Shown here one piece after another: positions 11,101 to 36,052 of a DNA stretch of 43,703 nt. The notes below the pieces were generated by a model, which saw only the letters and a list, made by a program, of their open reading frames with translations, was not told the DNA's origin and searched no databases. Each line of letters starts with the position of its first letter. Within the stretch, counting starts at the first letter, position 1. Both the position numbers and the translations under genes were made by a program. This DNA is from Candidatus Avispirillum sp. (GTDB lineage Bacteria > Bacillota > Clostridia > Oscillospirales > CAG-272). The stretch lies in NCBI GenBank assembly GCA_045638055.1, contig JAZUAR010000017.1:1-43703 (forward strand). The letters are read 5' to 3'.

Positions 11101-11577
11101 TTAAACTGCGCAGTACAGATAAGAGACAAACAAGGAGCACACTAAAAAAGGGATCATTGATGCCACTGCGATCACATACTGCTTTACAAAATTGCTTTCT
11201 CTCTTTCCTCGCAGGATTATCACAACTACCCTCACAATCTCAAAATAAAGAAAGCTGATAAGAGTGCCCATTACGGAAAATGACATCAGCGCCGTTATCA
11301 GATACATTCCCGCAATAACTGCGATTTCAAGAATCAAGGGGTAAACGGGGATTCTCACCTTACAGGACCTGCATCTGCCCTTACAGGCAATATAGGACAC
11401 AACAGGCAGCTGCAACAGCGGCGGTATCCTTGCACCGCAGCTGTCGCAAGCACATCCCGAAGCCAAAACAGGCAAGGTATTGCCCTTTGTCAGTCGCAGG
11501 ATATTCGTTGTTGCCAGCCCGCCGATATGAAAATAAATTATAAAAAGACCGATTGCTATAATAATGTGATCAGTCAT
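11101..11577 (-). CDS. Membrane protein consisting only of a prepilin-peptidase N-terminal (4-Cys) domain; no aspartyl-protease domain
   Basis: GCACDSCGARIPPLLQLPVVSYIACKGRCRSCKVRIPVYPLILE matches the CxxC...NIP..S....G.C..C...I...YP pattern of the peptidase A24 N-terminal domain. The following 80 residues are hydrophobic and contain no Asp at all. RBS is AAGAGGTGA. Confidence 0.75.
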   Translation of the reverse strand: MTDHIIIAIGLFIIYFHIGGLATTNILRLTKGNTLPVLASGCACDSCGARIPPLLQLPVVSYIACKGRCRSCKVRIPVYPLILEIAVIAGMYLITALMSFSVMGTLISFLYFEIVRVVVIILRGKRESNFVKQYVIAVASMIPFLVCSLFVSYLYCAV

Positions 11578-11600
11578 TACAAAATCACCTCTTTGATTTT

Positions 11601-11630
11601 AAATGGGCGGGAGTTTTCTCCCGCCCATTT
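11601..11630 (-). terminator. 13-bp-stem hairpin after the giant gene (weak or partial terminator)
   Basis: aaatgggcgggag-tttt-ctcccgcccattt. Only a poor U-tract follows on the minus strand, so read-through into 11577 is likely. Confidence 0.45.
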
Positions 11631-11637
11631 TCAGTGA

Positions 11638-14600
11638 TTATTTTTCACCGTTCTTTTTTCTCTTGTAAACTACAAGGAATACAATAAGACCTGCAAGAAC
11701 GACTACGCCTGCAATAGAGCCGTAGAAGAGAGGCTTATTTGTGTAGTAACGAACGAAGAAATCGGTTGTTACGTAGAAGTCCTCTACCTGCTCAGCATTT
11801 GCGGGAATATTTGCTTCGGAAATCTTTTCACCGTTTCCTGCCGCGTCAACCGCATATACTACAAGCTTATGGGAAGCGGTTGATTCACCGGAGATATCGA
11901 AGCTGAAGTTACCACCGTTCTTGATGATCTTCTCAAGCTCCTCGCCCTCCCATGTCTTGTATGTATTACCGTCAAGCTCAGCGATAACCTTTGTGAGCTT
12001 AAGGTTATCCTTAACGTTCATGGTAACTGTCATGTTATCCAAAGCGTAAGTTGTATTGCTTTCGAGGTTTTCGATGTTGATAATGGGAAGAGTGCTGTCA
12101 ACACCGAAGTTGATTGCTGTATCCTTTGTATCCTGGTCGTTCTTTGCCTCGTTGCCTGCCTTATCGTCAGACTCAACTGTGAGGCTGTATACACCGTCAG
12201 CATCGAAGTTTGCTGCAAATACGGTATATGTATACTGATACCACTGGCCGTTGCCGCCCTCAATATCGATCTTATAGTCTGCGCCTTCCTCAAGAACCTT
12301 GGTTTCGCCGTCCTTGAAAAGAATTACCTTGATATTGGAAAGCTCATCGGCATTGGTCTCTGTGATAACTACATCGATAGGCTCCTTAACGTAAGTGCCG
12401 TTCAGTGCCTCTGCTGCCTCGCTGAGTGCGTATGTGGAGCCGAAACGGTTAACAGAGAATACGATAGTCTTTTCTGTTGTGTTGCCGGCCTTATCTGTAA
12501 GGGATGCTGTCAATGTATAGATATCGTCAATTTCCTTTTCCTTCGCAAAGTTGTTGAATGTGAAGGTGCGGCCGTTATGAATGTCCGCATAGGAGCCGTC
12601 AAGCTCAACAGCCTTACGGTTTGCGCCTGTGAGGGTGATAGTTACCTCGCCTGCGTCATAGTTTGTATCGGAGTAGGAGATAACGGGAATAACGTCGCCG
12701 TTATTGGCAGACTTATCAGCAATGCCTGTGATATCGAGAGTGGGCATTGTAGTATCTACAAAGAATGTCTCCTCTGTGTAATCAGCAGACTCGTTACCTG
12801 CCTTATCAACTACAGCGATATCAAAGGTATACTTTGCATCCTTGCCGTAGTAGATCGTTGCTGTATGAGTATCACCGTTGGATGTCCATGCGCTGACGGT
12901 AGGCATTGCAGCTGTAGCACCATCATCTGTTGCTGTATGAGTAACAGTTACTCTCTCAGCATTGAAGTTATGCTCTGTGATAACAACAGTTGCAGTACGA
13001 ACTGCCTTGTAGTAGTTGCCGTTCAATGCGCTGTTATTATCGTATCTTACTGCAATAACAGGATCGATATGGTCGATAGTAAATGCGTTGGAAGCAACTG
13101 TGCCGTTTGCGAATGTTTCGCCTGCACAAGCATTTTCCGCAAGGTCGGTGTAATTGATATCAAACTCATAATCACCGTCTGCAGTATACTTGATCGTTGC
13201 TGTCCATGTTGTATCGTCACAGTTTCCTGTTCCTGCCTTCTTTGTGAAGGCGGAAATTACGGGGATCACACCGTCTGTATTTGTGATTGTTACCACAACG
13301 TCCTCAGCCTTGAAGTTACGCTCTGTAATAACAACTGTAGCAGTTCTGTCATCCTTGAAGAATGTATCGCTGTCTGCAGCGTTATTGTCGTAGGAAACAA
13401 GGATCTCGGGAGCAGTGATATCGATCTTGATATCGCCTGCAGCTGTTGTTGTCTTTCTCTCGTTGCCTGCGTTATCGATCGCTGTGATCTCTACGATAAC
13501 GTTGTTGCTGTTAAACTTCTCAGAATCGATAGTGATATTACCGCTCCAGGAGCTTACGAGCTTATCTGCATCAAATACTGCGCCTGCAGTCTTTGTTGCA
13601 AGGTCGAGAAGGATTCCTTCCTCAACTGCATCTGTATCTGTTGTGTAGATCTTATATGTGATCTTATTAATACCGGAGTAGTGACCGTTATCAGAAGCCG
13701 CGGCACCTGTATACTTGGGGTCAACAACCTTAAGGTCTACGTTAACGTCGCCCTTGTACATTCCGTTGGCGTTTGAGGGGCCGGGAATGATATCAATTTC
13801 GGGGGCGTGTGTTTCACCTACAGGCTTCTGGTCGTCTACTACAATGCCTGTAGATCTGATTATAGAGACATTGCCGGCTCTGTCCTCAGCTCTGAAGTAA
13901 ATTACAAACTTTTCGCTGGGATTAACAACGATACCTGTTTCATCGTTGTAATCTGTCCATTCGCCGTTTTCGTCATAATCACTGATATCTGCAACCTTCT
14001 GATACTTGAGTGTCTCAAGACCGCTGATGTCGCAGTTTGCGGAGAGCTTAACTGTAACTGCAGCACCGTAGAACTTATTGAATGCATGGTCTGTCATTAC
14101 ACCGTTAACAGAAACGTCTGCAATCTTGATGTTCATTGCTGTAGGAGCTGTCTTATCGATAGTAAACTCAACAGGCTCAAAATCCTCTGCTGCATTACCT
14201 GCAAGGTCCTTATAATCAATATCAAATGTGTAATGTGCCTCTGTGCTGAAGGGGATAACGATTGTGTGGATATCACCGTTGTCGTCCCAGTTCTCGTTAT
14301 TTGTCATGTAGCCAACGTAATCGAACACCTGAGCCTGAGCGCTTTCGGCAATTACGTTTACTACGATATCCTTAGCATCAAAGTTATGCTCATCAACAGT
14401 AATTGTTGCCTCTCTGTCAGCTCTGTACTGATTCTCGTTTTCATGATCGGGCTCAGTGAACTCAACCTTCATTTCGGGAGCGATCTTATCGATGGTGAAC
14501 TTATCCATCTCATAAGAATCATAAACATTGAGGGACTTATCTGTATACTTGATATTAAATGTGTAGTCTGCATTTTCATTGAATTCAACGGTTGCCTTGT

Positions 14601-34744: not shown

Positions 34745-34762
34745 TATGAGCACCTCCTGTCA

Positions 34763-35824
34763 TCAGCTGATTTTATCGTATATACTCATGTTAGCAAGCT
34801 GATTAACAACCTGCTCTGTTGTTGCGTGCTCATATCTGGGAGCACCGCCGATATTGTATATTTCAATACCCTCGATCGCCTTGCTTGTCTTGTTGCTGAA
34901 CTTGTTATAGATAAGAGAAATGCGATTAAGAAGGGAATCGTCCTTGTTCTGCTCGAGAACAACGAGAGCGTTATAAGCACGGAATATCTTCATATTGGAG
35001 ATATCGGAGCCGTCACCGACCATAACAATGTTGTTCATGGTGCGGAAAACGTCAAGCGCATCCTTGGAAAGAGAGAACTCCATATCAACAACGATGTAAT
35101 CGTAAGCTCCCATAAGCTTCAGCTCGGAAATAAGCTTTAATATTTCCTCCTTGCCGAGCTCCATCATATCGAGAGCAAACTTTGCCTGAGAGTAGAAATA
35201 CACTCCTGTGTGGTCCTGCTTTACGTAGCTTTCAAGCTTGAGACCGAAATTTGCCCTTCTGCTCTTGAGGGAGAAAATAATATCACTCATATCAAACTGA
35301 CCCTCTCCTGCAAAGTAAACATCGGAGGAGCCGAACTTTTCAAGATTGAGATAGAGCGCCTTCTTGCCCTGCTTTGCCATTCTGATCGCAAAGGCAGCAG
35401 CAAGAGAGGATGTGCCAACACCGCCGCAGGGAGAAGCGAAGGCAACAACTCTTGCATTGTCATCACCGAGCTTGAGGCCTGAAGCACGGCCGGAGCTTTC
35501 GGAATAAATGCTGAGAATCTGCTTGTAGATCAGATCAGCCTTCTGGAACTTGCAGATAGCTCTCTGATCGTTAACACTCTCAACGTCCATGGAGTCAACG
35601 AAATAAGCAAATCCGCAACGGCCGGGAATAGCCGCAGCATCAATAGTGAAGCTGTCGCTGGCGATAAGAACGTCAATTCTGGATGACTCCAGAGTAGCAA
35701 GTGCTATATCCTTATCTGTGAATGAGTAGATCTCAAATTTGTCTGCATACTTTGTGTTGAATGCAGTAACGATTCTGGCAAGATAGCTCTGATCCTTTTC
35801 CAATATCGCAAGTTTAATTCTCAT
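34763..35824 (-). CDS. tadZ: TadZ/CpaE-like protein: atypical receiver domain plus degenerate MinD/ParA-type domain
   Basis: The N-terminus MRIKLAILEKDQ...RIDVLIASD is receiver-like. VVAFASPCGGVGTSSLAAAF aligns to the deviant Walker A xKGGxGK[ST], but both Lys are replaced. It is the first gene upstream of tadA. The ORF-track extension to 36283 has no coding character. Confidence 0.8.
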   Translation of the reverse strand: MRIKLAILEKDQSYLARIVTAFNTKYADKFEIYSFTDKDIALATLESSRIDVLIASDSFTIDAAAIPGRCGFAYFVDSMDVESVNDQRAICKFQKADLIYKQILSIYSESSGRASGLKLGDDNARVVAFASPCGGVGTSSLAAAFAIRMAKQGKKALYLNLEKFGSSDVYFAGEGQFDMSDIIFSLKSRRANFGLKLESYVKQDHTGVYFYSQAKFALDMMELGKEEILKLISELKLMGAYDYIVVDMEFSLSKDALDVFRTMNNIVMVGDGSDISNMKIFRAYNALVVLEQNKDDSLLNRISLIYNKFSNKTSKAIEGIEIYNIGGAPRYEHATTEQVVNQLANMSIYDKIS

Positions 35825-36023
35825 AACGGTTATACCTTTCTTTATACATACCGACAGTAGTTTCATCCGATAAAACGGGGGGCATACCGCGAATGCTGAC
35901 AATGGACCATTGCGACCGTTTCCATCGCATCCGCCGTACTCCTGTAAATAAGAGCTCCGCCTTTCACATAAACGAAAGTTCTTACTTATAGATATAATAC
36001 GCACATTACATATATTCCAATTT

Positions 36024-36052
36024 ATTATAATACGCAACAACTCAAAAGTCAA
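36024..36052 (-). promoter_or_regulatory. Near-consensus sigma-A promoter of the Tad block
   Basis: The minus strand reads TTGACT (36052-36047), 17 nt, TATAAT (36029-36024). A GTCAA-n6-TTGAC palindrome overlaps the -35. The predicted leader is about 190 nt. Confidence 0.65.

Follow-up and report, generated by a model that had tools for sequence, protein, structure and literature searches.

A Tad/Flp pilus operon of Clostridia with a candidate phosphothreonine docking module

Background

Why does a locus that encodes a Tad/Flp pilus machine continue, on the same strand and with hardly any space between the genes, into genes for a forkhead-associated (FHA) protein, a PP2C phosphatase, a Hanks-type Ser/Thr kinase and a giant surface protein? 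The question is raised by a block of 18 genes in a stretch of 43.7 kilobases (kb) of DNA from Candidatus Avispirillum sp. (contig JAZUAR010000017.1), the whole of which is called the window here. A preliminary description of this stretch had taken the last eight genes of the block as foreign to Tad loci, and had proposed that threonine phosphorylation gates either pilus assembly or the display of the giant protein. Judged from gene content and order in related genomes, the block is the standard operon of a clostridial type IVc Tad/Flp pilus of monoderms. The supposedly foreign genes are what a clostridial Tad locus of this type normally contains, and one of them, encoding a protein with TPR and WG repeats, belongs with the tad half. 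We give a probability of roughly 0.55 to the reading that the second half of the block is a portable phosphothreonine docking module which gates the Tad machine.

Tad pili of Firmicutes are essentially unstudied, and this kind of locus is present in at least 241 genomes of Clostridia from gut and rumen, counted at species level. Its carriers include relatives of abundant human commensals (Agathobacter, Eubacterium, Ruminococcus, Faecousia, Acutalibacteraceae). If the proposed gating is real, the short acceptor motif described below, five residues long and easily mutated, would offer a testable handle on the decision to make a pilus.

Organization and conservation of the operon

The 18 consecutive genes occupy positions 11101-35824, all on the minus strand, in an order that runs from tadZ to the gene of an A24_N protein. 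In that order the gaps between them are 9, -44, 14, 64, 84, 4, 13, 27, 11, 5, 10, 61, 19, -1, -8, 3 and 60 nucleotides (nt), so that no intergenic gap of the block is larger than 84 nt. The kinase stop codon and the start codon of the following gene, which encodes a bitopic membrane protein, share the letters TAATG (the gap of -1), and tadA and tadB overlap by 44 nt, given the ATG at 33549 as the tadB start. Recomputed in this way, the coordinates agree with the preliminary description in gene number, strand, upper limit of the gaps and both overlaps. The start of tadZ is placed at the ATG at 35824, since the TadZ-like_ARD profile sets in at this Met; a GTG start, which would give an open reading frame (ORF) of 506 residues reaching 36283, was rejected as an over-extension for the same reason.

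The first half of the block can be read as the pilus machine: TadZ, TadA, TadB, TadC, Flp, three TadE/TadG-like pseudopilins, a TadV-type peptidase and the TPR/WG protein. The second half is taken to be a portable module for signalling and the envelope, consisting of an FHA scaffold, a PP2C phosphatase, a kinase, the bitopic protein, a protein with four transmembrane (TM) segments and the giant protein.

Two surveys show how regularly the two halves occur together. The first was anchored on the FHA protein and admitted one genome per species; 241 species had a relative, and the best 80 loci were examined. Genes were called by tblastn with the window proteins, upstream genes being counted where the flank had at least 6 kb and PP2C and kinase genes where at least 3 kb followed downstream. 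All of these 80 loci belong to Clostridia wherever their label goes below the phylum, and they include Lachnospiraceae, Oscillospiraceae, Acutalibacteraceae, Ruminococcus, Eubacterium, Agathobacter and Faecousia. Cultivable strains are among the carriers: Ruminococcoides intestinale CLA-JM-H38 (L030), Candidatus Soleaferrea massiliensis AP7 (L068), Ruminococcaceae bacterium AB4001 (L074) and Ruminococcus sp. JE7B6 (L080). At least two core tad genes lie upstream of the FHA gene on the same strand in 63 of 67 loci, PP2C and kinase genes follow it directly in 68 of 75, and the giant protein is present in 54 of 63; a lack of synteny between the tad genes and this trio with the giant gene had been named beforehand as one ground on which the gating idea should be given up, and the idea withstands this check. 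The one-helix (bitopic) membrane protein was found in 53 of 63 loci. In the first four contexts (49-54% identity) a single strand carries tad, WG, FHA, PP2C and kinase genes, two genes for small membrane proteins and the gene of the giant Ig-like protein. Among the 80 loci, none with upstream sequence has the module without tad genes, save L045 and L081, whose flanks are shorter.

The second survey started from the opposite side of the block and used tadC as its anchor, since homologs of the DUF5702/TadG-like protein, which had been considered for this purpose, are only 17-28% identical. Among metagenome loci, 37 had enough downstream sequence, and in 35 of them an FHA gene follows the TPR/WG gene, including distant loci in which it is recognisable by its FHA domain alone. 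The TPR/WG gene itself is found in 76 of 84 loci and is kept even where the FHA gene is missing (L109, L133); by these patterns it is part of the tad half.

Variants of the common order are informative about the scaffold. L067 has the order tadZ-tadA-FHA-tadB-tadC, and in L060, L061, L076 and L079 tadZ lies directly upstream of the FHA gene. In L064 (a metagenome-assembled genome (MAG) of Eubacterium sp., positions 11595-14811) the FHA gene closes the tad operon, and genes for BspA-type LRR_5 and Big_6 proteins come next; PP2C, kinase and a homologous giant protein are absent, and the FHA protein has a single acceptor motif. Because of these six loci we regard the FHA scaffold, on the evidence of gene order, as the part of the module with the closest ties to the tad core. 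A hidden type VII secretion system (T7SS) in the loci without PP2C and kinase was considered and rejected: L064 continues with the BspA-type and Big_6 genes, and L079 with an ABC transporter.

A distant Tad clade is common in human-gut metagenomes (L122, L127, L150 and L164; tadC identity 42-45%). There the scaffold matches only at its FHA part (query residues ~320-491), and its N-terminal domain may have diverged or been replaced.

Signalling components and their motif

The genes of the second half, all on the minus strand, and the motif region of the scaffold are as follows.

21675..23156, minus strand: scaffold protein with DUF6382 and FHA domains, 493 residues (Pfam DUF6382 3e-20, FHA 9.5e-13)
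21999..22049, minus strand: FGETTVLGGGTSGETTVL, two candidate phospho-acceptor motifs within the scaffold, the second ending ~34 residues before the FHA Pfam match
20846..21613, minus strand: PP2C/PPM phosphatase, 255 residues (Pfam PP2C_2 1.6e-9)
19123..20826, minus strand: Hanks-type Ser/Thr kinase with cytoplasmic kinase domain, TM segment at residues 281-299 and ectodomain of ~268 residues (Pfam Pkinase 1.2e-48)
18539..19123, minus strand: bitopic protein, 194 residues, predicted N-out/C-in, with four (G/N)ETTLL motifs in its tail (DNA ~18680-18805), from motif and TM reading
18043..18546, minus strand: small protein with four TM segments by prediction, start codon uncertain, homologs in 35 of 84 loci
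11638..18039, minus strand: giant Ig-like protein, 2133 residues (Pfam Big_13 6e-9, MBG_3)

The scaffold consists, in this order, of DUF6382, a linker of ~190 residues rich in Pro, Gln and Ala, two GETTVL motifs and the FHA domain. The motif region, with the consensus FGETTVLGGGxxGETTVL just N-terminal of the FHA domain, is invariant in 12 of 12 aligned relatives. A six-frame translation of the window contains six copies of ETT[VL]L, all of them in the FHA protein and the bitopic protein, and this restriction extends to the relatives: of the 250 copies of ETT[VLI]L in the 80 loci (3.0 million residues in six frames), 127 lie in the bitopic protein, 119 in the FHA protein and four elsewhere. 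Single homologs have 1-6 copies in the case of the bitopic protein (52 of 66 homologs) and 1-3 in the case of the FHA protein (71 of 82). The tail of the bitopic protein that bears the ETTLL copies is cytoplasmic by the positive-inside rule. FHA proteins devoid of the motif are found in five of the seven loci without an adjacent kinase, compared with six of the 68 others (Fisher p=5e-4, without correction for phylogeny).

The motif resembles the ETTS site of GarA and OdhI. FHA domains usually prefer a hydrophobic residue at position +3, and a pT-x-x-L sequence fits FHA binding for this reason. A full-text literature search for ETTVL and its variants returned nothing other than noise. GarA and OdhI are also the nearest solved relatives of the FHA domain itself (PDB 2KFU, 6I2P, 2KB3; E=6e-8), which keeps the S-R-x-H (S-R-S-H in the window) and N-G residues.

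Both enzymes seem equipped for catalysis. The kinase has its catalytic Lys, (Y)RD, DFG and APE intact when aligned to Staphylococcus aureus PknB, StkP and Mycobacterium tuberculosis PknB, and the phosphatase, aligned to tPphA, keeps all metal-binding motifs (DGMGG, GDxR, DG, DN); its relatives in PDB include PstP, Stp1 and the phosphatase PppA of the type VI secretion system (T6SS) (E=2e-13). The kinase ectodomain is modelled as an all-helical repeat with a predicted local distance difference test score (pLDDT) of 90.9. As far as sequence goes, the earlier idea of a gate operated by threonine phosphorylation is supported by these intact kinase and phosphatase motifs, by the confinement of the ETT motif and by its loss where the kinase is missing.

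The N-terminal domain of the scaffold, DUF6382 (180 residues), gave an AlphaFold2 model with a pLDDT of 92.9 and a predicted template modelling score of 0.88. A Foldseek search of PDB with this model returned 153 matches at E<=1e-3, and all 50 of the matches listed are kinase-fold proteins or pseudokinases, among them the kinase-homology domain of MviN/Rv3910 (TM-score 0.64), PknB, PknE, Pan3, Tribbles, YukC/EssB and the N-domain of TraF from the pIP501 type IV secretion system. No catalytic Lys, HRD or DFG is visible among its invariant residues in two alignments. DUF6382 is probably a kinase-like, catalytically dead domain, if the model is correct, and this fold is the first structural hypothesis for the family. 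Searched by itself against 1.84 billion representatives, DUF6382 finds 2075 representative clusters at E<=1e-3, and the DUF6382-FHA protein has thousands of relatives; in the literature searched, the domain is mentioned by Garrett et al. 2024 (PMC11217815) only.

The giant Ig-like protein has its own Sec signal and C-terminal anchor. Its architecture of signal peptide, C-terminal TM segment and basic tail is kept in 8-9 of 10 complete homologs (1827-2287 residues), and a sequence search of PDB with it gave no matches. The preliminary description had likened it to an adhesin; by analogy with the T7SS proteins TsdI and TseI (see below), it is better read as an envelope-spanning partner within the module than as a free-standing adhesin. 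Residues 595-683 match an NCBIfam OmpL47-type beta-barrel domain (E=3.9e-13), and a repeat with the signature D-x-x-A/K-P...Y-D-N-N...D-R-T-A-T-I...N-F is present in at least four copies. For the protein with four TM segments, family searches gave no match.

A possible mechanism and its alternatives

In the mechanism that we favour, the kinase would phosphorylate a Thr within ETT[VLI]L. At the membrane, the FHA domain would dock on the tail of the bitopic protein once that tail is phosphorylated, as Fha does on phospho-TssL in the T6SS of Agrobacterium; it may also, or alternatively, dock on the motifs of the scaffold itself, as in the intramolecular switch of GarA and OdhI. Docking would position or release DUF6382, and DUF6382 would contact a cytoplasmic component of the Tad machine, whereby assembly would be either licensed or blocked. 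The best candidate for this contact would be TadZ, because tadZ and the FHA gene are adjacent in variant loci and because a TadZ-like atypical receiver domain (ARD) occurs together with a DUF6382-FHA protein in T7SSf. PP2C would reset the switch, and the giant Ig-like protein would be the extracytoplasmic partner, with a possible role in spanning the envelope or recognising a target, as has been proposed for TsdI.

Several observations weigh against this gating by phosphothreonine docking. Phosphorylation, binding and piliation are predictions for the members of this locus. The canonical Arg of the FHA domain (G-R) is a Lys (G-K) in 79 of 79 aligned sequences, which leaves phosphate binding plausible and unproven. 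The strict motif is missing in 14 of 66 bitopic homologs and in 11 of 82 FHA homologs, and the statistic that associates motif and kinase ignores phylogeny. The likeness of DUF6382 to kinases exists at the level of the fold alone, with TM-scores of 0.45-0.64 and root-mean-square deviations of 5-12 Å, and a search of PDB by sequence gave no matches. The fold search with the kinase ectodomain found generic helical repeats and no specific PDB counterpart, so that no ligand can be proposed. Finally, promoter-like sites inside the block and two hairpins may separate the transcription of its two halves.

The first alternative takes the Lys in every aligned homolog at face value: the DUF6382-FHA protein would be a structural subunit that serves the Tad machine independently of phosphorylation, in analogy to the contact of EssC-FHA with the EssB pseudokinase in T7SSb, and kinase and PP2C would regulate something else or merely fine-tune. 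A kinase-like fold without recognisable catalytic motifs suits such a subunit, and so does the fact that the FHA protein is kept without adjacent kinase and PP2C in L064, L067, L079 and L084, in most of which ETTVL is gone; these kinase-less loci show that the FHA protein has a core role which does not depend on the kinase. Such retention suggests to us that the core role is structural and that control by phosphorylation comes in addition. A purely structural subunit agrees less well with the conservation of S-R-x-H and N-G in a domain whose nearest solved relatives are GarA and OdhI, with a motif strongly confined to two proteins and retained in step with the kinase, and with PP2C and kinase genes that directly adjoin the FHA gene in nearly all loci (68 of 75), while the exceptions may have a kinase elsewhere in the genome. 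We consider this explanation rather unlikely, and it is the one among the alternatives that survives best.

Alternatively, the second half might be an envelope module in its own right, which serves to build or control the giant Ig-like protein and is merely co-transcribed with the pilus genes, in which case Tad would not be gated at all. The same components accompany the unrelated machine of T7SSd/e (PMC11217815), hence different partners are possible; the giant protein does not need Tad for export, given its own Sec signal and anchor; and hairpins and promoter-like sites could uncouple expression. Co-transcription alone, however, does not account for an FHA gene between tadA and tadB (L067) or directly after tadZ (four loci), nor for one that stays with tad in L064 despite the absence of the kinase and of a homologous giant protein. 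The FHA gene in 35 of 37 tadC-anchored loci, and the lack of module-only loci among the 80 apart from the two with short flanks, point in the same direction, and we regard a merely co-transcribed module as unlikely.

A third explanation is that the locus encodes no adhesive pilus but a Tad-derived, Kil-like device for contact-dependent secretion or antagonism, fired through the kinase upon contact with an envelope, as in the threonine-phosphorylation pathway of T6SS. The module is common to T7SSe, a system type linked to LXG and RHS toxins (PMC11217815), FHA proteins are numerous in the Kil and Bdellovibrio Tad systems, and the locus encodes an unusually large pseudopilin (1190 residues) next to a surface protein of 2133 residues. 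On the other hand, the pilin is of the ordinary Flp1_like kind, the window ORFs scanned brought up no gene for a toxin, an immunity protein, LXG, RHS or WXG100, and the flank genes scanned are housekeeping genes or lack a family match; an antagonism device appears improbable to us. A chance or recent juxtaposition of genes confined to this contig, for which one might cite the GC content of the block (0.41-0.49, slightly below that of its flanks), is refuted by dozens of species-level genomes (FHA identity 39-59%) and by the tadC-anchored metagenome loci, in all of which the genes keep this order and strand.

Gating of the Tad machine by phosphothreonine docking is accordingly retained at the probability given above, and a wider claim can be attached to it only tentatively. 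A six-gene module that was independently plugged into T7SSd/e and into clostridial Tad loci could be a general assembly licence that senses the envelope or contact, and the main post-translational switch of piliation in hundreds of gut species of Lachnospiraceae and Oscillospiraceae; we hold this to be possible and, on balance, doubtful.

Genes of the pilus machine

The genes of the first half are listed here together with the last gene of the block, which touches the same subject.

34763..35824, minus strand: tadZ, ARD plus ParA/MinD-like ATPase, 353 residues (Pfam TadZ-like_ARD 5.2e-49)
33506..34753, minus strand: tadA/cpaF secretion ATPase, 415 residues (Pfam T2SSE 7.5e-60)
32707..33549, minus strand: tadB-like platform protein, 280 residues, 3-4 TM segments (T2SSF E=0.011, below threshold)
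31823..32692, minus strand: tadC platform protein, 289 residues (Pfam T2SSF 2.5e-14)
31555..31758, minus strand: flp-type major pilin, 67 residues, GTG start after AGGAGG, one hydrophobic helix (Pfam Flp1_like 1.6e-16)
30736..31470, minus strand: TadE-like pseudopilin, 244 residues, N-terminal G-ASSVIE, one TM segment (TadE E=0.041, below threshold)
27159..30731, minus strand: giant TadG-like pseudopilin, 1190 residues (Pfam DUF5702 6.5e-39)
26486..27145, minus strand: lipoprotein with lipobox LVAC, poorly conserved, from sequence
25190..26458, minus strand: second TadE-like pseudopilin, 422 residues (TadE E=0.06, below threshold), in 45 of 84 loci
24495..25178, minus strand: TadV-type prepilin peptidase, A24 domain alone, 227 residues (Pfam Peptidase_A24 9e-12; no A24_N in the protein)
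23167..24489, minus strand: membrane-anchored extracytoplasmic protein with TPR and WG repeats, 440 residues (Pfam WG_beta_rep 6e-31, TPR)
11101..11577, minus strand: stand-alone Cys-rich A24_N_bact membrane protein, 158 residues (Pfam A24_N_bact 6.5e-13)

Profile hidden Markov models bear out most of the Tad assignments made earlier, namely those of TadZ, TadA, TadC, Flp, the DUF5702/TadG-like protein and the peptidase, and leave TadB and the two TadE-like proteins below threshold; with this reservation the gating idea also withstands the check on the Tad assignments that had been set for it beforehand. The TadZ product matches PDB 3FKQ over its full length (E=9e-107), an entry which we take to be the TadZ of Eubacterium rectale, and TadA is 68-91% identical across related loci. 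The T2SSF match of TadB spans the full profile, its topology is right, and the homolog in L001 carries PF00482. The N-terminal motifs and the single TM segment of the TadE-like proteins fit pseudopilins, with profile scores that are all sub-threshold; the L004 homolog of the protein of 244 residues likewise has a weak TadE match. At the N-terminus of the 1190-residue pseudopilin there is a Tad match below the cut-off (E=0.007), and this DUF5702/TadG-like protein was found by tblastn in 57 of 84 loci. Homologs of the lipoprotein were found by tblastn in L005 and L085 only, both of them Acutalibacteraceae MAGs. The absence of secretin and Rcp components that had been noted before holds in the Pfam scans, in which no secretin or Rcp family matched among the block proteins.

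The A24_N protein at the far end of the block is possibly the split-off N-domain of a prepilin peptidase, and its membership in the block is weakly supported by comparison: homologs lie directly upstream of tadZ in L060 (8392-8853) and L076 (8363-8803) and were not seen in the other surveyed loci. The prepilin peptidase seems to be split into an A24-only protein and a separate A24_N-only protein, the latter accompanying tad genes at two different positions.

Transcription signals and neighbouring genes

The signals that bear on transcription of the block are the following.

36024..36052, minus strand: sigma-70-type promoter-like site TTGACT-17-TATAAT, 11 of 12 consensus matches, ~190 nt upstream of the tadZ ATG
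31509..31536, minus strand: perfect 12-bp GC hairpin without U-tract, immediately 3' of flp, in the gap of 84 nt
11601..11630, minus strand: hairpin with 11-bp stem and poor U-tract, 3' of the giant gene

The preliminary description had placed the whole block under one near-consensus promoter. The site itself exists as described, at 36052-36024 with 11 of 12 matches, and "one" is the part that does not stand as an observation: sites with 10 of 12 matches lie inside the block at 27145, 26853, 19652, 13886 and 11243, and on account of them a single promoter for the block stays an inference, as does a single transcript. Between 24000 and 37500 the consensus is matched at 11 of 12 positions twice, by this site and by one on the plus strand at 37090-37118. 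As a class, promoter-like sites number 37, compared with 27 +/- 5 in shuffled sequence, an excess over expectation that is not clear. An alignment of promoter and leader with three relatives did not find conservation, so that this comparison cannot corroborate the promoter. The leader of ~190 nt (35825-36023, minus strand) contains no Rfam riboswitch or leader RNA at gathering or E-value threshold.

Both internal hairpins described earlier (31510-31536 and 11601-11630) were found, and they lack U-tracts as stated. The one after flp is likely either a stabiliser of the pilin mRNA or an attenuator of read-through; in either role it may yield pilin in excess over the machinery.

Upstream of the block the adjoining gene, an ORF of 119 residues (36581-36940, minus strand) without a Pfam family, closes with a strong 14-bp terminator (36516-36482). 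Downstream, 66 nt from the block, the gene of a nucleoside hydrolase (10102-11034, minus strand) is preceded by its own promoter-like sequence TTGACT-17-TATAAG. The flank genes scanned are housekeeping genes or had no family match; they include methionine genes and those of SpoVAD, pyruvate formate-lyase, a HemN-like protein, the nucleoside hydrolase and a DD-carboxypeptidase. A ZMP/ZTP riboswitch (3274-3354, plus strand), whose 61 bits exceed the gathering score, directly precedes the pyruvate formate-lyase gene (3373-5649), which is followed by the gene of a radical-SAM activase (5646-6350). A ZTP riboswitch before pyruvate formate-lyase and its activase is the classic 'pfl motif' arrangement.

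The GC content of the block (11000-36000) is 0.41-0.49, slightly lower than the 0.47-0.55 of the flanks; its single peak, 0.53 at 22001-23000, corresponds to the linker of the FHA protein, rich in Pro, Gln and Ala. Two ORFs on the plus strand, antisense to the giant gene (12577-13776, 399 residues; 13807-16083, 758 residues), have translations rich in Cys, Val and Ile and were set aside as composition artefacts.

Comparison with known systems

Regulation of a secretion nanomachine by threonine phosphorylation reportedly operates in the T6SS of Pseudomonas aeruginosa, through PpkA, PppA and Fha1, and in the T6SS of Agrobacterium tumefaciens Fha is said to bind phosphothreonine in TssL. The locus described here resembles these systems in that a membrane Hanks kinase, a PP2C phosphatase and an FHA scaffold are encoded within the locus of the machine, and also, by prediction from that analogy, in a phosphorylated membrane protein as the docking site of the FHA domain. 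It differs in the machine, which is unrelated, in its monoderm host and in the lack of TagQRST-type sensors; the scaffold moreover bears an extra kinase-like domain and candidate acceptor motifs of its own.

In GarA and OdhI of Actinobacteria an ETTS site serves an FHA-based switch that regulates enzymes of the tricarboxylic acid cycle. Like the scaffold, these proteins carry an E-T-T motif N-terminal to the FHA domain, within a disordered stretch. The differences are considerable: GarA and OdhI have a single ETTS and G-R, whereas the window protein has two ETTVL, G-K and an N-terminal extension of 370 residues, and further copies of the motif are found in the window on a separate membrane protein. 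Pairs of FHA domains and pseudokinases are reportedly known as well, FhaA binding the phosphorylated MviN pseudokinase and EssC-FHA binding the EssB pseudokinase of T7SSb.

Within Tad systems, the preliminary description had seen no precedent for the combination of kinase, phosphatase and FHA protein. For FHA proteins there are precedents in diderms: the Tad-like Kil system of Myxococcus has FHA-KilF and other FHA proteins (PMC8460266), betaproteobacteria have class III FHA-CpaF fusions (PMC12019362), and FHA proteins occur in tad neighbourhoods of Bdellovibrio (bioRxiv 10.64898/2026.07.08.737194). In all of these FHA domains are genetically attached to Tad machines, and phospho-signalling has been proposed there. 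In the diderm systems, however, the FHA domain is fused to the ATPase or found in unrelated proteins, the hosts have secretins, and neither DUF6382 nor a conserved pair of PP2C and kinase nor ETTxL proteins have been described. Tad loci of monoderms were reviewed in 2019 with actinobacterial examples alone (Bifidobacterium breve, Micrococcus luteus), kinases and FHA proteins being unmentioned, and type IV pili that have been investigated in Firmicutes to date are of type IVa (PMC6916266). With the actinobacterial loci the window shares TadZ, TadA, TadB, TadC, Flp, pseudopilins, a TadV-type peptidase and the lack of a secretin, and it differs from those described by the module of kinase, PP2C and FHA protein, the TPR/WG and DUF5702 proteins and the giant Ig-like gene. 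No published description of the module in clostridial Tad loci was found in a search that left most subscription journals outside.

The full set has its closest parallel in T7SSe, and here too the claim of novelty has to be narrowed. In T7SSd/e, Garrett et al. 2024 (PMC11217815) describe a membrane kinase with helical ectodomain (TsxD), a PPM phosphatase (TseF) and a DUF6382-FHA protein (TseJ), next to one-TM proteins whose cytoplasmic stretches are short and unstructured (TsxH, TseK) and large Ig-like proteins with a Sec signal and a C-terminal TM segment (TsdI/TseI; 1654 residues in Olsenella uli), for which an envelope-spanning position is proposed. According to the same study, T7SSf pairs a DUF6382-FHA protein with an ATPase bearing a TadZ-like ARD, and Tad genes adjoin T7SSg/h. 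By architecture, the second half of our block matches TseD, TseF, TseJ, TseH-K and TseI gene for gene, and the kinase ectodomain is helical, as in TscD and TsdD; for the kinase, PP2C, one-TM and Ig-like counterparts the match is one of architecture alone and not of sequence. For the scaffold the likeness extends to sequence: over 149 residues the FHA region shares 48% identity with TseJ (TseJ residues 258-420, Figure S4 of PMC11217815), an identity that covers GTTVLGVEDVGTTVL, with its double TTVL, and FRIGKERSY..ISRSHA, the G-K variant.

In contrast to T7SSe, the motor in the window is Tad/CpaF with a Flp pilin, and the block has an additional protein with four TM segments. No EssC/FtsK ATPase, WXG100 or YukD-like protein was found among the 18 block genes and the ten flank ORFs scanned, which indicates that the locus is not a T7SS and shares the accessory module alone. 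The occurrence of the same module in T7SSe suggests that surface machines of monoderms follow a common regulatory logic.

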